64,000 nucleotides of DNA from positions 1-64,000 of IMG/VR virus record IMGVR_UViG_2814123113_000001; one strand, 5' to 3'. The position numbers and the translations under genes are program-made. This document shows, one piece after another, positions 24,935 through 37,509 of the stretch. Position 1 is the stretch's first letter, and every line of letters starts with the position of its first letter. The DNA is from a virus. Its lineage: Duplodnaviria > Caudoviricetes. A model generated the notes under the pieces. It was not told the DNA's origin and ran no database searches. It saw only the letters and a list, made by a program, of their open reading frames with translations.

Positions 24935-25183
24935 CTAGGCCCCGAACGTCGGCGTAATCGCGCCGCCGCTGACGACGCCGCCACCAAGGCGATTGACGAT
25001 CGAGCGCGCCTCGAAGATCGCCCGGGACAGTTCCTGCATCGAAACCGGATCGGCGTATTCGACGCCGCCGACCTCGTACTTCACCGACTTGACCTGGACG
25101 CCCTTGAAGCGGTCAAGCTCCGCAGCCTCCAGCGCGGCCAACCGGGCTGTCGCCAGTTCCAGATTTTCGAGCCAGTTGGCCAT
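24935..25183 (-). CDS. gpW-like head-tail joining protein
   Basis: 82 aa between terminase and portal; VKSVKYE..VEY. Confidence 0.75.
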   Translation of the reverse strand: MANWLENLELATARLAALEAAELDRFKGVQVKSVKYEVGGVEYADPVSMQELSRAIFEARSIVNRLGGGVVSGGAITPTFGA

Positions 25184-27399
25184 CAGGTTCCTCTCATGTC
25201 GCGTGCAAGCTTGAGCAGCGGGTGGACGTTGTCGACGGGATCGCCGGCAGGCGCCGAACGGCGTTCGGGAGCCGCGGCAGGCGTGTTCGTGGGTGGCAGG
25301 GCCGGAGCGGCTGACCACAGACCCTCGAGCGGTAGCTGCCCTTCACGCGACGGCTCTCGCCGCCGATCCGCGATCAGCCGCTTCCAGTCTTCCTCGGTCA
25401 TCACGTCGGGCAGGAACGACCAGGCGATCGCGTGGCAGTAGACGGCCATGTCCAACTGCTCGTTGCGGACACCCTTGACCGGTTCCCAGATCTCGTACTT
25501 CCGAGGCGGCTTTTTCGACGGGTCCGGCGGCAGCAGCACTTCGGCCGTCATCTGCTGGAAATCCAGCTCAGAGGCTGTGCCCTCTAGCGTCACTGATCCG
25601 GACAGATGCTCGCCAAGCTCGACACCGGCCAGGGTTTGGGCCAGGCCGAAGTAGATTTCCTTTTTGATATTGTGCGTGCCGACCAGATAGAGTTGGACCT
25701 CGCCGACAACGCGGCGTCCAACCTTGGCCTTTCGGCGGGTACCGGCCTCAATGGGGAAGACCTGCTTCTGTTCTTTCTCGGACGCGCCCTTCAGCGCCAT
25801 CACGTTCGGGCGGCCCATGCAGAACACGTAGGCTCGGTTCGTGTGGTGCCCGCCCGTATCGACGCCCACGCGGTCAAAACCGATCGGCCGACAAGCGTCG
25901 CCTTCATAGGTTCGCTTGGTGATGTCGGCTAGCTCTGACCAAGCTCTGGGATCAATCGGCGGGATCGGGATGATCCCGCTGTCGATCCGTGCGTAACGCC
26001 TTCCCTTGGCGCCCTCGGGCAGCGGACCCGAGGGACCAACTACCCAGACCGCCCATTCAATTCGGTCACCTTGAAGGTCGACGCCCAAGAAGACCGTCCA
26101 AGCCCAGGGCGGGATGCGCCCGCGCTCGACCATCGCGATGGCCGCCGCCTCGGCGCGCTTCTCGTAGAGGCGCGCGGTCGCGGGTCGATCGTAAGCCGCC
26201 TCGAACGGCAGCCCGAGCACCTGCTGCCAGAACGTGACCAGGGCCTCGGGATCATCGGACTTCATCGCCTCGTCGAACTCGACGAAGATCCGCGACCAGG
26301 TCGTGAACGGCGAATAGGCCTGCCAGATACCGTCGAAGGACGGGTCGCGCCCCTCGAGGAGGGCGCCCTGACAGTCCGGACCCCGGCGGCCTAGCCAGTA
26401 TTCCCACGCGCCGTGTTCGATGCAGGGCGGCGGCGGGATGTTCGGATGTTCAAGATCCGGTGTGCCGTCCGACCTCTGGTGCTGAAAGCAAGCCAGCCAA
26501 CCTCCGTTTCCGGCGTCGGCCTGGTCCAGCATCCAGCGCTTATGCTCGTGGCCGATAGACTGGCCGCAACTGTTCGATTGGCAGATGAAGAACGGTCGTC
26601 CGCCCTCGAACTGCATGTTCTCCCAAAGCAGGAGCTGCTTGGCGTTACAGTGCGGGCAGGGAACGTAGTACTTTTCGTGCGTACGCCGTTCGATCTCGAC
26701 CGTGACTGGGCAGTCGCCGACGAACTTGGGCGTGCCGCCACCCAACTCCTTGGCGTCATCGCCCCAGGCCAGTGTCCGGGTCCGGGCCTGACGGATCGGC
26801 GAACCCCGGCCGCCGACATCGCGAGGATAGGACGAGGGCTCTTCGAAGATCAGCAGGCCGATGTCGGACTGCTGAAGCTGGGCTTCGGAACCGGCGTTCG
26901 CGATCTTGAGGAAGCCGCCGCGAAACCGCTTGTGGTACTTGGTCGAGCTGTTCTCGGCCCCGGCCTTCACGGCCATGATCTTCAGACCGACCTTGGGCGA
27001 GGCCCGGATGTTCGGCGAGAAGACTTCCTTCTCGAAGTCCTTCTGCTTTTGATCGCTAGCGCAAACGACCATGGCCGAACGCGGCGCGGTGTCGATGCAG
27101 TGCATCGCCGAGTTTAGGAAGACCTGCGTCTTTCCGGTCTTTGCCGACCATCGCAGCCAGACCGATCCGCAAGGATGATCGACGCCGCTGACGTCCATCG
27201 GCCGCCGCATGTACGGCGCGACGCTGGTCTTCCACCGGCCGGTGATCCTCGCGCCAGACTCTGGCGAGATGTACCGATACTCGTCGGACCAGACCGAGAC
27301 GGTTTGTTCGACTGGCGGCGTCGCGTTGGCGGCGACCGCCGAGAACATCACCGCCCACCCGACCGCCAGGCCAGGGAACTGCGATCGAAGCGCGCTCAT
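25183..27399 (-). CDS. Terminase large subunit (gpA family)
   Basis: Walker A SAKTGKT, YYVPCPHC zinc motif, GVDLQGDRIE, VDTGG, RNEQLD. Confidence 0.95.
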   Translation of the reverse strand: MSALRSQFPGLAVGWAVMFSAVAANATPPVEQTVSVWSDEYRYISPESGARITGRWKTSVAPYMRRPMDVSGVDHPCGSVWLRWSAKTGKTQVFLNSAMHCIDTAPRSAMVVCASDQKQKDFEKEVFSPNIRASPKVGLKIMAVKAGAENSSTKYHKRFRGGFLKIANAGSEAQLQQSDIGLLIFEEPSSYPRDVGGRGSPIRQARTRTLAWGDDAKELGGGTPKFVGDCPVTVEIERRTHEKYYVPCPHCNAKQLLLWENMQFEGGRPFFICQSNSCGQSIGHEHKRWMLDQADAGNGGWLACFQHQRSDGTPDLEHPNIPPPPCIEHGAWEYWLGRRGPDCQGALLEGRDPSFDGIWQAYSPFTTWSRIFVEFDEAMKSDDPEALVTFWQQVLGLPFEAAYDRPATARLYEKRAEAAAIAMVERGRIPPWAWTVFLGVDLQGDRIEWAVWVVGPSGPLPEGAKGRRYARIDSGIIPIPPIDPRAWSELADITKRTYEGDACRPIGFDRVGVDTGGHHTNRAYVFCMGRPNVMALKGASEKEQKQVFPIEAGTRRKAKVGRRVVGEVQLYLVGTHNIKKEIYFGLAQTLAGVELGEHLSGSVTLEGTASELDFQQMTAEVLLPPDPSKKPPRKYEIWEPVKGVRNEQLDMAVYCHAIAWSFLPDVMTEEDWKRLIADRRREPSREGQLPLEGLWSAAPALPPTNTPAAAPERRSAPAGDPVDNVHPLLKLARDMRGT

Positions 27400-28076
27400 G
27401 CGACGGCAGCGTTCGCCTTGCCAGCGCGCAGCCGAACCGCGTGCGCGGCGAGCGTCATCAGCCTATCCAGGGCCTCGCCCGTGCTCTCGTTGCCAGCAGC
27501 CAGCGCCTTGCCGATCCGCGTCGCGAAGCGATCCTGACCAACACGGTCGTATCGCTTGAGGGCCGCTCGTAGGGTGCGAACCTTCTCAGACGGCAGGCCA
27601 AGCTCCGCCGCCAGACGTTCAGCGAAATCGGCGCGAACCTCGACAAACGCGGCGCGCATCTCGACGATCGCCTCTGCTGCACCGGCGTCGACCTCAGCCA
27701 CATCGGTCAGCTTACCTTCCTCGGCGGCCTCTTCGCGAAGCTCGCGACGCAACTGGACAGCCTTGAGCTGGCGATGCTCGTCCAGCTTGACGGGCTCGTC
27801 CCGCGCCGCCGACGTGGGATTGGGCGTCGGCGGCGCGGCCTCGGTGGCGGGAACGCTATGCAGCGCCTCACCGCTCATCACCGACCGGGTGTAGTTGTTC
27901 TTTCGGTGATCGCGCACGGCCTCAAAGTCGACCATGACCTCGCGGCCGACTTTCCCCAGCTTCAGGCTATGGGCGTCGCAATACCGCGAGAGGGCCGACC
28001 GCTCGATGACGTCGCCGGCAGCCGTCAGCAGCTCGGCGGCGCGAGCCACTGACACCCGCCCGATAGGACCGGACAT
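27396..28076 (-). CDS. Terminase small subunit (Nu1-like)
   Basis: N-terminal HTH, helical C-terminus; ATGA overlap with the large subunit. Confidence 0.75.
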   Translation of the reverse strand: MSGPIGRVSVARAAELLTAAGDVIERSALSRYCDAHSLKLGKVGREVMVDFEAVRDHRKNNYTRSVMSGEALHSVPATEAAPPTPNPTSAARDEPVKLDEHRQLKAVQLRRELREEAAEEGKLTDVAEVDAGAAEAIVEMRAAFVEVRADFAERLAAELGLPSEKVRTLRAALKRYDRVGQDRFATRIGKALAAGNESTGEALDRLMTLAAHAVRLRAGKANAAVA

Positions 28077-28268
28077 GTGTGCTCAACCGTGATGAAGGGA
28101 AACGTGCAATCCGTGCGCCTTTGCGCGCGGCTCACACAAGAAAGCGAGCGCGACTTTGAACGCGCCGTATCCCTCAGAGGCCCGGAAGGACCCGCGAAGG
28201 TAGGCCGAGGGCCTCGTCAGCGGACGATCCGCCGCGCGATCGGATCGCCGATGTTGCCTTTAGGCACG

Positions 28269-28303
28269 AAAAAGCCCGCACGATCGGACGACCGGCGGGC
28301 TTT
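28269..28303 (-). terminator. Intrinsic terminator upstream of the late operon
   Basis: AAAGCCCGC...GCGGGCTTTTT on the minus strand. Confidence 0.8.
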
Positions 28304-28329
28304 CAGTCAGGGGAATGGGTGGCCTATAC

Positions 28330-28426
28330 GGCTGCCGCACCCGGCCTCGCTAGAGCGTGGCCAAGGTGCAGAGCGATTGCCTTAGATGGCTGCCGCACCC
28401 GGCCTCACTTCAGTGTGGCCAAGGTG
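28330..28426 (-). repeat. Two 39-bp direct repeats (58-bp period), each a predicted hairpin
   Basis: 28330-28368 and 28388-28426 are identical except for an 8-nt core. Confidence 0.9.
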
Positions 28427-28959
28427 ACGACTTTGGACGTCTCGCGTCCGAGTAGGTTGAATAAGATCTCTGCGCGAGTCTTGTCAACCGGCTGAACGAA
28501 GATCGCGTCAAGGTCTCCAGCCTCAGTCGCGTACCGAACAGCGTCGCCACGCTGCCAGCGCTCGGGCTCAGGCGAGGCCTGGGCGACCTTGATGAACCCG
28601 TTTTCTTCCCGCGCCTGAAGCGCTTCGATGATGCGCGGCGGCACGGCGACGGGACGCTGGTCAGGCCCGACGAACACCGAAGAGACACCGATCGTGCCGT
28701 ACATCGACCGCCACCATCCGATTGACGCGTCGCTCAGCCGCACGAACAGATACCGAGGGAAGAACGGTCGGATGTTCAGGCCACCCTTCGGATTGCGAGG
28801 CGTCTTCGGCGCCTCGCTCACTGCGAGAGGCACATAGACCTCGAACTTCTGAGCCTCCAAGCGCGCCCGCGCGGTACGATCCATACCGGGCTTGGCGACC
28901 ACGACGCACCACCGGCCGACCAGGTCAGCACCATCCTCACCACCACCAAAGTCGGCCAT
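28405..28959 (-). CDS. NusG/RfaH-family transcription antiterminator
   Basis: NGN domain (WCVV..KPG, PFFPRYLFV, GTIGVSSVF, VPPRIIEAL) plus KOW-like GDAVR...ILFNLLGR. Confidence 0.9.
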   Translation of the reverse strand: MADFGGGEDGADLVGRWCVVVAKPGMDRTARARLEAQKFEVYVPLAVSEAPKTPRNPKGGLNIRPFFPRYLFVRLSDASIGWWRSMYGTIGVSSVFVGPDQRPVAVPPRIIEALQAREENGFIKVAQASPEPERWQRGDAVRYATEAGDLDAIFVQPVDKTRAEILFNLLGRETSKVVTLATLK

Positions 28960-29954
28960 TACGCCACCCCTCTTTGAACGTCTCCGAGCACATAGCCCAT
29001 TGATTTTATTGGAAACCATGCTCGCGCGAGTTCCTCGCGAGCGTACCCATTTGCAGGCAGGACGGCTCGCCCTCCCGGATCGTATCGGGCCGGATCAAGG
29101 TACTTCCGCACGAAGCTCTCGCCCTGCGTCTCGCACAGCTTTCGCCGCACCTCCGCCGGCCCTTCGAACCGGAAGAGGTCCACGGCAGCCGCAACGACAG
29201 CGACAGCAGGCACGAAGTCAGCCCAACGCCCCAGCGCAAACCATTCAGCGACCGCCTTCGGCTGGCCGCTCGATCCCCAGGCGGACTTGTCCGCAGCATA
29301 GGCCGAGCCCGCAGCGATCAGCCGCTCGGCTGCCGCGCCAGCGACCAGCTCAGCTCGGATGACCTTGCGCAGCTCCCGCTTGCCCGACCGGCGCAAGCCA
29401 ACCTCGGGCCACACGCCCCACAGCGCCACCACGACCTGTTCGACAACCTCATCGAGTTCGCGCGCGCATGCGCCCGGTGAGGAAGCGATAGCTTCCGAAC
29501 TACTCTTGTCTTGTCTACTCTTGTCTAGGGCTGTAAGCGTCTGATTTTCCACGCTTTCAAGGTCGAGAAGTGGCGGGTTATTTCCGACACCTGCCGACTT
29601 CTCCTCGACACCTGCCGACTTCTCCCCGACTTCTGCCCGACCGGACCGCGTCGTGACGCCCTTAACCGAGCGCCGCTCGTCCTCAAATTTGGCGTTAGAG
29701 ATGTAGTGCTCGCCATCGACTTCGAAGCGGATCAGCTTCCGCTTTTCGATAAGCCGATTGAGGATCGGATTGAGCTTCTGAACGGCGCAGCCGCAATGCC
29801 CTGCGATGTAGCCACGATTGTCCTCAAGCGGGCGCCACGTCAGGTACAAAAGGTCGATGACCGTATTGTAGACCCCACGCTCCTCCAGCGTCATCGACAC
29901 CATGCCCTGGAGCGCCGCGCCAGGATCTCGGCGATAGAAGTTCTCGCGCTTCAT
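28959..29954 (-). CDS. Replication initiator (DUF1376/YdaU-like)
   Basis: MTLEERGVY..IDLLY N-terminal motif; internal direct repeats. Confidence 0.8.
   Translation of the reverse strand: MKRENFYRRDPGAALQGMVSMTLEERGVYNTVIDLLYLTWRPLEDNRGYIAGHCGCAVQKLNPILNRLIEKRKLIRFEVDGEHYISNAKFEDERRSVKGVTTRSGRAEVGEKSAGVEEKSAGVGNNPPLLDLESVENQTLTALDKSRQDKSSSEAIASSPGACARELDEVVEQVVVALWGVWPEVGLRRSGKRELRKVIRAELVAGAAAERLIAAGSAYAADKSAWGSSGQPKAVAEWFALGRWADFVPAVAVVAAAVDLFRFEGPAEVRRKLCETQGESFVRKYLDPARYDPGGRAVLPANGYAREELARAWFPIKSMGYVLGDVQRGVA
29500..29634. other. Putative replication origin (iterons) inside the initiator gene
   Basis: CGACACCTGCCGACTTCTCC at 29585 and 29606 with a partial third copy; CTACTCTTGTCT at 29500 and 29515. 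Confidence 0.6.
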
Positions 29955-32423: not shown

Positions 32424-34961
32424 TTACGCGGCCTCCGTCGCTGGAGCTGGACGCTCGCCGATGAGGTCGAAAAGGGTTGGCGTCGCCATCTCGCGCGCCA
32501 TCGCCTCGACGTGCTTCACGCCATCCAGGAAATAGGCGGGGTTCAGCTCGTTGGCGCACCCCCGTCGCCCAAGCTTGATCGCGCGGTAAGGCACGGTCAT
32601 CAGCCCGCCGAACGGATCGAACACCATCTCGCCAGGCATGCTGAACTGCGTGATCAGGCGATCGACGATGTCGAACGGCAGCGGGCAGAGATGTTTCTCA
32701 GCGCCTTTCTGGGCCTGCACCGTGTTGAGCGACAGCATCTGGGCCACGTCCGTCCAGACGTCGTCGTGCCAGGAATGCGGCGGCAACAGCATGAACGTCG
32801 GCGGCAAACGGCCGACCGCCGTTAGCGCCTCGCCGATCTGGACATGGTGCTCGAAGTCATAAAGCCGCTGGAGATTGAACCCCTTCCACAGGCGGTAGAC
32901 CTGATCGGCGTCCTCGAACTTGGCCCACTCCTCAGGCGCCACCAGACGATCCCCGGCCGAGCGCATGAGGTGATGCGCATCGAGCTGCCAGCGCGCCCGC
33001 GTGTAGCTGTCCTTGTCCTTGGCCACCGGCAGATCGGCATAGCCGTTGGAGCGATCCGAGGGCGGCTTGCGGAACAGCAGCACCTTCTCGGGCAGCCCCG
33101 CGCCCATGCGCGAGCCGTCCTTGCACTGCTCCGACCAACCCAACCGATAGGTCTGGTTGTTCTCGCGAACCACGTCCGTCAGGTTGGTCTTCTCGCCGAG
33201 ATAGGCGAAGCCATGACGACGGAAGGCGACGCGGCAGTCGTCGGCGAAGGGATAGACGGTCTGGAAGCCCAGCCCCGTCATGCCGCCCGGCACGATCCGA
33301 TCCTTGACGTGAATGGCCGCCACGCGCCCAGGCTGCAGGACTCTGAGCAGCTCCGGCACCAGATAGTCCATCTGCTGCCAAAAGTGCTCGTTGTCGTCGG
33401 TGTGGCCAAAGTCGGCGTAGTTGGGCGAATACTCGTACTGCGTCGAGAACGGGATCGACGTGACGATCAGGTCGACGCTGCTATCGGCCATGCGGCGCGT
33501 CTCGCGCACGGTGTCGTCATTGACCAGACGATAGCCCTCGCCCTCGACGACGATCCGATCCTTGACGCCCATGGCGCGCGTCAGGACCCCAGCCATGTCG
33601 GCGTTCGACAGGCCATAGTTTCGAATGATCGCGCTCATGGTCGCGGCCATCTCCTCGTGCTGAGCCCATTTTTCCTGAAGGTTCCGCAGCACCGCGCGCT
33701 CGCTCTCGGCGTAGATCACGTGGATCTCGACAGGATGCTGCTGAAGGAACCGCTGGATGCGGTGAATGGCCTGGATGAAGTCGTTGAACTTGAAGCCGAT
33801 GCCCAGGAACACGGCCTTGTGGCAGTGACGCTGAAAGTTACAGCCCGACCCGGCGATGACCGGTTTCGCCGCGAGGTAGGGGAACCAGCCGTCGCTGAAA
33901 TGCACGATGGCGTCTTCGCGAGCGTCGGGATCTTGCGCGCCATAGACGCTGACGCATTGCGGAACGGCCGCCTCGATCGCCGCGCGCTCGGCCTCCAGGT
34001 CATGCCAGAGGATGTATCGCTCATCCGGATCGGCCCGCAGGATCTCGCACATCTTCAGGACGCGAGCCTCGAGCGTGTCGCGCTTGACCTTGCTGGCCCC
34101 AACGATCCCCTGCGCGTCGTCCTGAAACAGGCGATGCTGCCCGCTCTTGTCGACGCCGGCGGCGCGGTGATCGACCGGAACCTCGTGATAAATGACCTTC
34201 AGCTCGGGAAGGGCGTAGCCCTCGTCGCTGAAACCCAGGTCCGACGGCCGCTGGACAAACAGCGCCCAACTGGCGACCCAGAGCCAGAACTCCTGTTCCT
34301 TGTGCGGGTGAAGGGTGAGGTTATCGGCGTTCTCGCTGTCGCGCTTGAAGAACCGCGTCTTGGCCTGCCCCACGTCCATCACATCAAGGAAAGCTGAATA
34401 GGCCAGCAGCTCGATGTGATCGTTCGGCGAGGGCGTCGCCGTGCCGACGAAGCGATAGGCGACCCTGTCGAACAGCCGCATGAACTCGCGAAAGGTCTTG
34501 CTGCCGCCAAAGCCGCGGAGGCACGAGGCCTCGTCGAGGCAGGCCACCGAGAAGTGGTTCGGGTCCAGCTTGCCGTCGCGCACCGTCTCGTAGTTCGTCA
34601 GATAGATCCCTCGAGGGTCGGTCGCCTCCTCGATACGGCGAATAAAGGTCACGTCGATGCCCAGCATCGCAGCGTCCTTCCGGAACTCCTGACGCACACC
34701 GAGCGGCATCACGATCAGCGCGCGCCCACCGACCAGGTCGCGCATGATCCGCGCGATCTCCAACTGCATCACGCTCTTGCCCAGGCCGAAGGCGGCAAAG
34801 ATCGCCGCCCGTCCCCGCCAGACCGCCCACCGCACGATCGCCCGCTGGTGCGGCTTGAGCAGCGGATTGATGACCTCATCACCGATCTCGAACCCGCATC
34901 GCGGCGCGGGCGGCACCTTAGCGGCAAGGAAGGCGTCATAGTCACGAACGGCGATCGTCAT
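32424..34961 (-). CDS. SNF2-like helicase fused to an N4/N6 DNA methyltransferase
   Basis: N-terminal FGLGKS, DEAS, TATPSPND; C-terminal VTSIPF, HLCPL, VFDPFGG. Confidence 0.9.
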   Translation of the reverse strand: MTIAVRDYDAFLAAKVPPAPRCGFEIGDEVINPLLKPHQRAIVRWAVWRGRAAIFAAFGLGKSVMQLEIARIMRDLVGGRALIVMPLGVRQEFRKDAAMLGIDVTFIRRIEEATDPRGIYLTNYETVRDGKLDPNHFSVACLDEASCLRGFGGSKTFREFMRLFDRVAYRFVGTATPSPNDHIELLAYSAFLDVMDVGQAKTRFFKRDSENADNLTLHPHKEQEFWLWVASWALFVQRPSDLGFSDEGYALPELKVIYHEVPVDHRAAGVDKSGQHRLFQDDAQGIVGASKVKRDTLEARVLKMCEILRADPDERYILWHDLEAERAAIEAAVPQCVSVYGAQDPDAREDAIVHFSDGWFPYLAAKPVIAGSGCNFQRHCHKAVFLGIGFKFNDFIQAIHRIQRFLQQHPVEIHVIYAESERAVLRNLQEKWAQHEEMAATMSAIIRNYGLSNADMAGVLTRAMGVKDRIVVEGEGYRLVNDDTVRETRRMADSSVDLIVTSIPFSTQYEYSPNYADFGHTDDNEHFWQQMDYLVPELLRVLQPGRVAAIHVKDRIVPGGMTGLGFQTVYPFADDCRVAFRRHGFAYLGEKTNLTDVVRENNQTYRLGWSEQCKDGSRMGAGLPEKVLLFRKPPSDRSNGYADLPVAKDKDSYTRARWQLDAHHLMRSAGDRLVAPEEWAKFEDADQVYRLWKGFNLQRLYDFEHHVQIGEALTAVGRLPPTFMLLPPHSWHDDVWTDVAQMLSLNTVQAQKGAEKHLCPLPFDIVDRLITQFSMPGEMVFDPFGGLMTVPYRAIKLGRRGCANELNPAYFLDGVKHVEAMAREMATPTLFDLIGERPAPATEAA

Positions 34962-36998
34962 GCCACCACCCGCACGTCTTCAGCCTGGGGCGGCAGGTTG
35001 GCGCGGATGAAGGGTGCAGCGGCGATCGGCGACACGCTGTTGCCGATCAGGCGGGTCTCGTCTGTCTTGGTGACAGGCTCGACCTTGCCGGTCGCAAAGT
35101 CGATCCGCCGATCGGTGCGATACGCCTTCGGAAAGCCTTGCGCCGCCGCCAGCTCGCGCGGCGTCAGCATCCGCATGCCAATGTCGGCGATCTGCATCAG
35201 CTCGCCGCGCACATAGACGAGGCCGAAGCGGGCGCGCGACGTGACGCTGTGGAGCGGGTCGCGAAGATCCTGCCCCTCGGCGGTGCCGTAGTATTTGACG
35301 AGAAACGCGCTCAGGCGATCCGAGATCGGAGCCCCGCCCTCAGCCAGCGGCATTTGCAGCAGATAGTGATGGTTGCCCCCGGCCGTGATCGTCTTGGCTG
35401 GCTGTTCGGGATTGCCTTCACCGCCGGCCGTGTTCGACGTGTAGGCATGAGACAGCATCGCCGTGACCAGCCGCTGAGTGCAGCCCTTGCTGACGATGGT
35501 CGACACCGGGTCAACCATATCGCGTCCGACCATGTCGGTATTGGCCTGTTCCATGTAGGCCGACACTACGCCAAGCGGCACTGCGCCACCGGGCCGCACG
35601 TTGAAGCTGCTGGCCGTCACAGTCGGCATCGGATCTTCGAGGCCCGACCCCGTCGCACCCGCGCGGAACTTGGTGAGGAACTGGGTCACCAGCCCATGGC
35701 GCGGCGCGCCATGCCATCACCGTATGCAGTGGCTCGCCAGGATCCTCGCCGATGCTGTTCTCGCTGAACTTGGTCAGATAGGCCGCCGTCAAACAGCGAT
35801 CCGCCTTGCCGATCACCGTTCCGAGAGGATCATCCAGTCCGCGCGGCGGACTTTGACCGGCCCGCGACCCACAACCCACAATCGCCCCGCCCATCAGCGT
35901 CGGCTGGACCAGGGCCAGCTCGCCCCGATGCGCGGCCGTCACCGTCCGCAGAGGATCTTGCGGGTCGTAGACCCGGCCCTCGCCATGATGCGTCAACGGG
36001 GTGACGAACGGCCCGGCCGCCATCTCGGGCTGCACCAGGGCAAAAGCGCCGCCGCGCGGATAGGCCGTGATGGTCCGCAACGGATCGTCGATGTCGTGAA
36101 CGCGCTCGTGCGACCAGTTCTGGATCGGCACGATGAACGGGTCGCCCGAGGCGATGACGTAGCGCATCACCCCCTTGGCGATACGCGCCAAGGTGGCCTC
36201 TTCCAACGGCCGCTTGGCCCGGATGCCCCGCTCGCGGCATTCCGCCTGCGTCAGGAAGATCGACGGGCACGGCAGCGAGAAGTCGATGCAGTCGGCGGCC
36301 GGAACATAGGGCTTGAGCCCCTTGCTCTTGGCCACCTTGCGCGGCGCATGCGTCGGCTCAGGCCACACGATCGGCTGGCCATCGCGGCGCGCGATCAGGA
36401 TCAGCCGCTTACGCGTGGTCGGGGCGCCGAAGTCGGCGGCGATCCAATCGACCTTGTACTCGACCACATAGCCGCATTGACGCAGCCGCTTGCACCAAAG
36501 GCCGAACGTCTCGCCCTTCCGCGCCGGATCGGGCCGCTGGACACCCTTGTCGTCCGGCGGCAGCAGTGGCCCCCAGTCGACGAACTCTTCGACGTTTTCG
36601 AGGAAGATCACGTCGGGCGCGAGATCGCCGAGCAGCTTGGCGACCTTGACCACCACCCAGGCCAGGCCCCGCACGCGCGGGCTCACAGGCGCGCTGCCCT
36701 TAGCCTTGCTGAAATGGCGACAGTCGGGCGAGGCCCAGAAAGACCGCCACTTCACGCCCGGCCGGATCACGGTCGGATCAATGTCGAACACGTCGGCGAT
36801 GAAGTGTTCGGTCTCGGGGCAGTTGAACATGTGGACGCCGATGGCGACCGCGTTGTGGTTCAAGGCCACATCGGGGTGACGGCCGAGCGCTAGGCGATAG
36901 GCCTCAGACGACCCGCCGGCCCCTGCGAAGTAAACCACGTCGATGGGGCGCGCGGGCGCATCGTTGGCTGGCGCGATATAGGCGGAGCGCTCAGCCAT
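34958..36998 (-). pseudogene. C5 DNA cytosine methyltransferase, frameshifted near 35711
   Basis: FAGAGG, SPDCRHFS, LENVEEF, PTTRKR in one frame; RMLTPRELAAAQGFP and IGNSVSP in another; one extra base in ATG GCA T GGC. Confidence 0.8.
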
Positions 36999-37509
36999 CG
37001 GCGCCGACCAGCTCACGCCCCATGGGGCTCAGACGCCATGCAAATCGCCCGGTGTTCAGACGCCGCGAAACGACGACACCTCGGGTTTCGAGAACGGGCA
37101 GAAGCTTGCCGACCTTGTTCCCGCCCACCCGCAACCGTTGCATCAGCTCGGCGACCGCGACGTCGCGTTGCTTACGACGATCGGACTGATAGTCCTGCTC
37201 AGCCTCGTGCAGCACGCTCAGCACGAACTTGCTGACATCGTCCAGATCACGCAGTCGCAGACGTGGCGCGGAGACGACAGGCGCGACGAAGTCGGGCCGG
37301 TAGTCCGGATCGCAGGCCAGACGTACGTCGTGAACCGACCGGCCGACCATTTCGGCGCAAGCCTGCCAACTGGCGCGCACAGTGCGGCGACGCTCGCGGA
37401 CCATGTCCATCTCATAGCGTTCGATCCGGGAGCGCGGCAGCACGCCCACATCCGAAAGCGCGCCGCTAGCCGTTCTCAGCGCCGAAGCGGTATGACCCCC
37501 TCGCGACAT
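36991..37509 (-). CDS. Winged-HTH hypothetical protein
   Basis: C-terminal VAELMQRL...LETRGVV..WRLS. Confidence 0.6.
   Translation of the reverse strand: MSRGGHTASALRTASGALSDVGVLPRSRIERYEMDMVRERRRTVRASWQACAEMVGRSVHDVRLACDPDYRPDFVAPVVSAPRLRLRDLDDVSKFVLSVLHEAEQDYQSDRRKQRDVAVAELMQRLRVGGNKVGKLLPVLETRGVVVSRRLNTGRFAWRLSPMGRELVGADG

Follow-up and report, generated by a model that had tools for sequence, protein, structure and literature searches.

The stretch of DNA considered here, 64,000 nucleotides (nt) long and corresponding to positions 1 to 64,000 of the IMG/VR virus record IMGVR_UViG_2814123113_000001 (Duplodnaviria; Caudoviricetes), will be called the window. It carries a prophage in which a gene for a NusG paralog resembling RfaH is followed by two tandem hairpins, an intrinsic terminator and the late genes. 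We think that this arrangement is probably a switch for late gene expression built from parts of the RfaH type: a promoter, a leader with hairpin-assisted sites that resemble ops (the DNA element of RfaH) and are duplicated here, a terminator, and a late operon of 28 kb. The parts, their order, their conservation and their co-occurrence are observed in a whole clade of related phage loci. From these we infer that the promoter is active, that polymerase pauses in the leader, that the factor loads at the ops-like box and that the terminator is read through. A preliminary description of the region had already suggested a switch, with the twin hairpins as the element that recruits the paralog. The first half of that suggestion appears strengthened, since paralog, cis element, terminator and late operon recur as a cassette across the phage clade. 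The second half, in which the hairpins recruit the factor in the manner of the put sites of phage HK022, has found no support, the box being invariant and the stems and loops variable.

The RfaH-like protein and the box behind its gene

The gene lies on the minus strand (28959-28405, stop codon TGA at 28407-28405) and encodes 184 amino acids (aa) with an NGN domain and a KOW-like C-terminal domain, which is the architecture of NusG/Spt5 proteins. The Pfam NusG/NGN model matches residues 16-114 (E 4.8e-11), PHROG 6386 ('transcription antiterminator') matches over the full length, and structures of E. coli RfaH align to residues 16-175, that is to both domains (E 6e-7). Among NCBIfam models the best is RfaH TIGR01955, with 77.8 bits over model positions 1-155 of 159. 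The UpxY model comes next with 29.3 bits against a cut-off of 100, and the LoaP model gives no match at E up to 0.01. By the tests run, the phage paralog resembles RfaH, yet it falls outside the RfaH equivalog, UpxY, LoaP and Q families. In E. coli RfaH, ops is contacted by K10, H20, R23, Q24, T72 and R73 (Zuber et al. 2018, PMC5995543, in excerpt); the equivalents of K10, Q24 and T72 are kept in the phage protein as K23, Q37 and T89.

Metagenomes contain many members of the family, with 2291 representatives at E up to 1e-3 and still 186 when the limit is lowered to 1e-10, and the closest homologs, P0002 to P0005, share 94-58% identity with the window protein. Proteins from a phage context form one clade of 22 rows with SH-like support of 96. 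A tblastn search of 50,697 deposited phage records with the 184-aa protein and two relatives returned only chromosomal RfaH/NusG sequences in mis-filed Salmonella contigs, and a scan of viral contigs with the 184-aa protein alone gave no match. The host genome contains a single other NusG-family gene, the housekeeping nusG, and no RfaH. Hence there would be no host RfaH available to serve the sites described below. The window protein (P0001) and P0002, which are 94% identical, differ at 11 positions, four of which (R33Q, A36R, K38R and E40D) are grouped in residues 33-40, in the helix that touches ops in E. coli RfaH.

The gene ends inside the first of two 39-nt repeats, just as the preliminary description had it. 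The repeat pattern is found exactly twice, at 28426-28388 and 28368-28330 on the minus strand, with no mismatches. None of 100 shuffles of the window gave two matches, and there are no further copies in the 4.14-Mb genome. Over a longer stretch of 49 nt the copies, which are spaced 58 nt apart, are still 84% identical. What had been treated as plain repeat at the 3' foot of each copy turns out to be the most telling part of it. The 3' end of each window repeat (GTGCGGCAGCC) occupies the position where related phages have GTGCGGTAGCC, and this box at the 3' foot of the hairpin is the sole invariant part of the sequence: GTGCGG(T/C)AGCC(R)T overall, GTGCGGTAGCC(G/A)T in relatives, with GTGCGG..GC..T as the invariant columns in the phage clade. 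Box 1 lies at 28386..28398 (minus strand, GTGCGGCAGCCAT), with its core GCGGCAGC at 28396-28389. Box 2 lies at 28328..28340 (minus strand, GTGCGGCAGCCGT), with its core at 28338-28331.

The E. coli ops element reads G1 G2 C3 G4 G5 T6 A7 G8 C9 G10 T11 G12, and RfaH recognizes it on the non-template strand of the DNA and accommodates T6, as a flipped base, in a pocket of the protein (Zuber et al. 2018, PMC5995543, in excerpt). The CGGTAG core of the relatives equals ops positions 3-8 in all six places, and ops positions 2-9 are shared exactly. The window boxes have CGGCAG twice, which agrees with five of the six core positions of ops and with seven of the eight positions 2-9.

How specific is this box to its place behind the gene? 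For this question homologous loci were collapsed to under 90% identity, which left 79 non-redundant loci. The pattern GCGGTAGC was present on the sense strand, between -25 and +130 nt of the stop codon, in 43 of them (3.87 per kb). In six control regions, drawn from the antisense strand, from upstream of and within the gene and from DNA further downstream, the loci with the pattern numbered between 0 and 4 per region (0 to 0.17 per kb). In five of five phage records the 11-mer box has a single sense-strand occurrence, which is at the cassette site; one record has one extra antisense match, and its control pattern likewise gives one match. The core is not limited to phages. CGGTAG also follows RfaH-like genes that head cellular polysaccharide clusters, where the genes after the RfaH-like gene encode Polysacc_synt_2, DegT, epimerases, sugar dehydrogenases and ABC exporters. 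The two groups differ in what comes next: 42 of 44 cellular elements have TG within the 4 nt past the box, as against none of the 22 phage-clade elements, which thus lack the T11-G12 pause dinucleotide of ops.

A variant box, GCGGATGC, is found in four loci. In three of these E or D replaces the equivalent of Q24, and an R73-like arginine is kept; the Q24 equivalent is still Q in each of the 21 phage-clade proteins listed that go with a T or C box. The pairing of GCGGATGC with the Q24 change likely reflects one evolutionary event and would be only a hint that the protein reads the box.

Other occurrences of the box were looked at and set aside. A pattern scan of viral contigs with GGGTGCGGTAGCCRT gave at least 118 matches (by our estimate about 200 would be expected by chance), and an RfaH-like gene was near in 4 of 80 loci; the remainder are chance matches in coding DNA. 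Twin copies of the box in locus L106 were dismissed, as they lie in a repeat within a 1187-aa open reading frame (ORF) on the opposite strand. In two viral contigs, L114 (about 1389-1415) and L131 (about 1992-2018), it is the 5' end of the RfaH-like gene, here a more distant one, that carries the box (GGGTGCGGTAGCCGT). Most relatives also have GAGG, a 5-nt spacer and GTG CGG TAG within the element, which amounts to a start-stop mini-ORF with a Shine-Dalgarno-like sequence. In the window (28398-28321, minus strand) the change of T to C turns TAG into CAG and opens a 24-codon frame across the second module.

Hairpins at the box in related loci

Each repeat copy holds a 31-nt hairpin of the same design: 5 bp, a U bulge, 4 bp, an A/A mismatch, 3 bp and a tetraloop. 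Hairpin 1 (28396..28426, minus strand) begins within the gene, whose final codons form its 5' arm, and contains the stop codon in its 3' half; it folds with -16.1 kcal/mol, and one of 200 shuffles was equal or better. Hairpin 2 (28338..28368, minus strand) is the non-coding copy and folds with -17.6 kcal/mol, a value equalled by none of 200 shuffles. The arms therefore pair as drawn in the preliminary description, and its statement that the differences are confined to the apical core also stands. The copies differ at four positions, all four in the apical 8 nt, with an A-U pair replaced by G-C and the loop UGAA by UCUA. By our arithmetic, the chance that four random differences among 39 positions would all fall in those 8 is 70/82251.

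Conserved structure in homologs had been set as a check on the idea, and it was found. When the 36 nt upstream of the box were folded, a hairpin ending at the box was present in 22 of 22 phage-clade elements (about 16 distinct lineages), with very different stem sequences. Each of these hairpins alone is only moderately unusual for GC-rich DNA. With the 16 lineages pooled, they are more stable than 8965 background windows of the same loci (Fisher p 1.9e-6, Mann-Whitney p 4.6e-10). A covariance model built from four sequences (R1) recovered most of the phage-clade elements. In its alignment, however, the distant elements had lost the 5' arm, and pairs were therefore not counted from it; the support for the hairpin thus consists of folds of individual sequences compared with background windows rather than of a covariation count. 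A scan of positions 28000-29000 against Rfam (E up to 10) gave seven weak chance matches, none of them to JUMPstart. Loops across the phage clade include UGAA, UCUA, CUCU and CUGACCA, none of the UNCG type, and the motif G-Y-G-A-G in the 3' arm is fairly conserved. The phage hairpins also differ in position from their cellular counterparts: in phage loci the 3' arm runs directly into the box, whereas in cellular loci the hairpin ends 4-5 nt ahead of it.

A hairpin that is always there could itself be the signal. The nascent RNA hairpins might bind the factor, as in dfn/LoaP, or act on the polymerase, as put does, and the box would then be a mere foot of the stem. Several facts speak for such recruitment through RNA: none of the 22 phage-clade elements lacks the hairpin, lineages differ in it by compensatory changes, the G-Y-G-A-G motif is present, and the sense strand folds better in 11 of the 16 lineages. 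There is also a precedent in LoaP, which requires a leader RNA hairpin before an intrinsic terminator (PMC12691694, in the part available). Loops and most stem positions, however, lack sequence conservation. What does not vary is the unpaired box, and its core coincides with the DNA element of RfaH and recurs behind cellular RfaH-like genes where the hairpin is 4-5 nt more distant. The protein, too, is best matched by RfaH models and not by LoaP, and its gene is always linked to the site, unlike put, which works without a phage protein. Since stems and loops vary freely, a structural role, for example as a pause hairpin, fits better than sequence-specific RNA recognition, and we regard recruitment through RNA as unlikely.

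The repeats can also be compared in close relatives of this prophage. Contigs from four public runs were aligned to positions 28100-29000; no RNA run was among those listed for the stretch, and all runs have small shares and were used only for reading contigs. One 27-kb relative contig (X2/X3) has 85 differences over 898 nt. The 40 listed differences of X2/X3 and X8 are distributed very unevenly: none in 28330-28452, 34 in 28144-28329 and 6 in 28453-28504. The difference-free block of 123 nt (28330-28452) takes in the two modules with their spacer, as well as the 26 nt that follow the start of transcription predicted below. As there are no joints in the X2/X3/X8 comparison, both copies are kept, each with C at box position 6. 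In run X1 the first copy is identical and is followed by a different 19-nt spacer and then the beginning of the second copy. The unchanged block fits selection on the modules, and the duplicated module and the C6 box are, as far as the compared sequences tell, features specific to this lineage. Pocket residues 33 and 36 were considered as a cause of C6, and the idea was dropped because P0002 differs at both. It is also undercut by the contigs of runs X2/X3, called P0002-like because one listed difference matches a P0002 substitution, which have no listed change in the boxes.

Could the repeats have nothing to do with loading a factor? They might be the leftover of a 58-nt tandem duplication, serving at most as 3' hairpins that stabilise mRNA, or an inverted repeat in duplex DNA to which some other protein binds, for instance a repressor or one involved in packaging. 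Indeed, the 58-nt spacing and the similarity over 49 nt resemble a tandem duplication, two copies occur in this lineage only among the loci examined, the hairpin folds on both strands, and the element lies near packaging genes. All of this is outweighed, in our opinion, by its distribution. Box and hairpin precede two unrelated types of terminase, and the box is also found in polysaccharide loci that are not of phage origin, which means that the element tracks the RfaH-like gene and not the packaging system. A separate conserved element nearer to the small-terminase position would suit a cos site better. All four changes from one copy to the other are confined to the apical 8 nt, and one is compensatory; relatives that have diverged by about 10% show no listed differences across both copies. 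That the repeats are unrelated to loading is thus very improbable.

Promoter candidate, terminator and late genes

The preliminary description had overlooked a conserved promoter-like element inside the coding sequence of the RfaH-like gene. The candidate lies at 28458..28487 (minus strand) and consists of the -35-like TTGACA (28487-28482), an 18-nt spacer and the -10-like TATTCA (28463-28458), with a predicted start at about 28452. TTGAC, formed by the codons for residues 158-159 (nTT GAC), is invariant in 19 of 19 phage-clade sequences, and so are T30, T33 and T36 in the -10 region. Leu166, eight codons further on, is usually encoded by the rare codon CTA. A scan of third bases in 158 codon columns from 17 lineages, made with no prior choice of columns, singled out the same two places: only at codons 158 and 166 does A or T dominate the third base (T in 17 of 17 and A in 13 of 17, respectively), against a background of 12% T and 6% A. 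What is conserved at the 3' end of the gene is therefore TTGAC-N18-TAnTnn, likely a sigma-70-type late promoter inside the gene with its start near 28452. Across the clade the box would lie about 55-110 nt into the predicted transcript, that is 91-145 nt after TTGAC. Just past the predicted start (28449-28435, minus strand) the window has GGACG..CGTCC, and relatives (alignment A8, columns 47-60) have the near-palindrome CG(C/T)GA(T/A)TCGCG. It consists of the codons for G-R-(D/E)-S-R kept at the nucleotide level, and may serve as an operator or form a stem at the 5' end of the leader.

Beyond the second module there is an intrinsic terminator at 28269..28303 (minus strand), with a GC stem and a U run ending in UUUUU; it folds with -22.4 kcal/mol, and none of 200 shuffles was equal or better. 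Its place ahead of the terminase genes is as previously described. Under a scripted rule (one hairpin with 5 or more pairs, followed by 4 or more U in the next 8 nt) 17 of 22 phage-clade elements have a terminator-like hairpin 5-90 nt past the box, and in 14 of the 17 its energy is -17 kcal/mol or lower. Of the five elements that fail the rule, four have the same GC stem with a poorer U run.

The terminator bears on another explanation, in which the factor loads at the box and its task is to guard the 28-kb transcript from Rho and polarity and to couple ribosomes to it, the terminator being just a leaky end of the early operon. The late block is indeed long and co-directional, and antitermination by E. 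coli RfaH contributes little compared with exclusion of NusG and recruitment of ribosomes (PMC7593976, in the part available). A GC hairpin with a U run behind the box in 17 of 22 elements is nevertheless hard to explain unless it is a regulated step. No terminator was noticed by eye close behind the boxes of polysaccharide loci, for which no dedicated test was made, and LoaP is an instance of a NusG paralog able to defeat an intrinsic terminator (PMC12691694, in the part available). On balance a purely protective role is quite unlikely.

Prophage genes in the window are on the minus strand and run from about 42.5 kb down to about 600. The early part encodes a regulator, DNA methylases, SNF2-type helicases and a DUF1376 protein. 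Three DNA methyltransferase-like ORFs lie at 32424-37016 (minus strand), one of which (845 aa) is fused to an SNF2-type helicase-like domain. The last gene of the early part is that of the 184-aa NusG paralog. The first late genes (25183..28076, minus strand) are a 226-aa ORF in the position of a small terminase (28076-27396, minus strand), for which no family match was obtained, and a GpA-type large terminase (27399-25183, minus strand), which has one. Genes for a lambda-type portal, protease, decoration, capsid, tail and endolysin proteins follow, and the late block remains co-directional as far as the endolysin at 1367-600. A PHROGs scan of 32 prophage ORFs gave no match to a Q-type PHROG, in agreement with the earlier remark that no Q homolog is recognizable; the sole antiterminator annotation among them was that of the 184-aa NusG paralog (phrog_6386). 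In the phage clade the same cassette is seen, namely the gene, a hairpin on the box, usually a terminator, and then packaging genes, and these are of two unrelated types: a GpA-type terminase, or an HNH endonuclease with Terminase_4 and TerL_ATPase.

A candidate cos element (GGGTCCTTCC...ATACGG in GpA-type loci) lies downstream of the terminator and ahead of the ORF in the small-terminase position. In the window it spans 28193-28165 (minus strand) and reads GGGTCCTT(C/T)C, about 20-25 nt, AT(A/G)CGG. Its carriers are the window, L006, L019, L020/L233, L221, L225, L227 and L229. These are the loci with a GpA-type terminase seen downstream, except that the terminase of L225 was not identified; the element is absent from loci with packaging genes of the HNH/TerL_ATPase type. 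The region 28184-28200 has no differences among those listed for the relatives. Just past the candidate element, at 28166-28147 (minus strand), is a second, weaker terminator-like hairpin with a T-rich tail, and L019 and L221 have a similar sequence at the equivalent spot.

A putative late-gene switch and its relation to known systems

If we are correct, the switch would operate as follows. The promoter in the last 80 nt of the RfaH-like gene, together with any read-through from the early operon, would feed host RNA polymerase into the leader. There it would meet two tandem modules, each an RNA hairpin with its 3' arm against an ops-like box. In the transcription bubble the box would be single-stranded on the non-template strand, where the phage RfaH-like protein could bind both it and the polymerase. 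The hairpin, formed behind the polymerase, most likely holds it at the box in a hairpin-stabilised pause that would replace the missing T11-G12 signal. Polymerase carrying the factor would then pass the terminator 28 nt past box 2 and transcribe the late block of about 28 kb, with its packaging, head, tail and lysis genes. Where the factor is missing, for instance in a lysogen, transcription would stop at the terminator and yield a leader RNA of about 185 nt.

Several observations weigh against this switch. The 77.8 bits of the protein are below the RfaH TIGR01955 equivalog cut-off of 144.5, and three of the six residues that contact ops are changed (H20 to R33, R23 to A36 and R73 to I90), which includes the pocket for T6. 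Both window boxes have C in place of T6, the very base that E. coli RfaH flips. The bare 8-mer GCGGYAGC is common in the GC-rich window (21 found, 15 expected) and a reversed control of the 13-mer also matches the genome twice, so the case for the box stands on positional homology with relatives and not on the window alone. The reverse strand of the hairpins folds almost equally well (-15.1 and -16.6 kcal/mol), and the sense strand is the better one in just those 11 lineages (Wilcoxon p 0.09), which leaves room for an inverted repeat that acts in duplex DNA. The identical 123-nt block in the relatives might equally be a recent recombination patch, and 47 further differences were placed beyond 28504 by inference from the positional order of the list. 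A promoter scan by E. coli rules flagged no site at the position of the embedded promoter. Finally, E. coli RfaH works mainly against Rho and via ribosome recruitment and is weak at intrinsic terminators (PMC7593976, in the part available). Read-through of a strong hairpin terminator is consequently an extrapolation.

By analogy, the cassette probably works like RfaH/ops supplemented with a pause hairpin similar to that of UpxY and a leader terminator similar to those of LoaP and lambda. RfaH with ops is the textbook example of an elongation factor loaded through DNA; nearly all work on it concerns enteric bacteria and operons unlinked to its gene. The phage system shares with it a two-domain NusG paralog and a box on the sense (non-template) strand in the leader of a long operon. 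It differs in that the factor is encoded in cis, directly upstream of its own site, and in that the box is abutted by an RNA hairpin and followed by an intrinsic terminator, ops being a hairpin-less type-2 pause. The present phage further departs from it by C6, two copies of the site and changed equivalents of H20, R23 and R73, and the cassette did not match the Rfam JUMPstart family at E up to 10.

The UpxY proteins of Bacteroides load at sites made of NusA-stabilised pause hairpins and non-template DNA (Saba et al. 2024, PMC11685472, in excerpt). As with UpxY/opsX, the phage factor gene is linked to its target operon, the site is a composite of RNA hairpin and non-template DNA, and there are several classes of factor and site. 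A hairpin directly upstream of the DNA element, which characterises UpxY-type sites, is seen in all 22 phage-clade elements, with pausing predicted. The phage protein, however, is nearer to RfaH, its box has the RfaH ops core, and the target is a phage late operon, not a capsule operon. LoaP binds an RNA hairpin of the UNCG type, antagonises NusA and overcomes the terminator of the dfn leader (Jermain et al. 2025, PMC12691694, in excerpt). Here the likeness consists of a small leader hairpin, a subsequent intrinsic terminator and a linked NusG paralog. The phage loops, though, are unconserved (UGAA and UCUA here), the box is an ops-like DNA element, and there is no match to the LoaP model.

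Gene order invites comparison with the late switch of lambda, which comprises the Q gene, pR', qut, the 6S leader and tR'. In both cases an antiterminator gene is the last in the early region and is followed by a promoter, a short leader, a terminator and the late genes, with the cos site (a candidate here) and terminase genes downstream. The protein families are unrelated, and the phage promoter candidate is inside the coding sequence of the factor. Lambda Q loads at the promoter during a sigma-dependent pause. A box about 55-110 nt into the transcript means that loading would instead happen during elongation. HK022 put resembles the present case in having two hairpins before terminators in a phage. 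It acts without a phage protein and has no ops-like box; here there are a factor gene and such a box, and a single hairpin is the rule in relatives.

Full-text searches of the literature, supplements aside, brought up no account of an RfaH-like phage gene paired with an ops-like site. That prophages can carry rfaH-like genes is touched on only briefly by Wang et al. 2020, and a 2026 preprint (PMC13015549) proposes that RfaH relatives encoded beside their targets are recruited in cis without ops.

One may go a step further and speculate that the site is a hybrid with a specificity of its own. The factor would read hairpin and box together, changes within a lineage would create private pairs, and the whole would be a mobile module of about 700 bp. 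We put this forward tentatively, as an unlikely elaboration of the switch. The private pairs would be the change of T to C at position 6 with the duplication in the present phage, and TA to AT with Q to E or D in another lineage. If such a reading is true, co-resident prophages and cellular RfaH-like systems would not trigger each other's late operons, and phages would have a counterpart to the specificity classes of UpxY/opsX. The buried promoter would then join gene, promoter and site in a module that could be placed before any block of morphogenesis genes.

Whatever the specificity of the site, a whole phage clade of RfaH relatives keeps the ops core behind the gene, together with a hairpin, a terminator and an embedded promoter candidate, in the place that lambda gives to Q. 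The natural variants of the core (C6, and A6-T7 with the Q24 change) would be useful for studying how such a factor reads DNA, and the compact, self-contained unit could be transferred to drive long operons. Because the 50,697 deposited phage genomes contain no relative, this prophage, which resides in a complete genome, is a possible experimental handle. If the model of an RfaH-type switch is true, it would represent a second, unrelated solution to the timing of late genes in phages.

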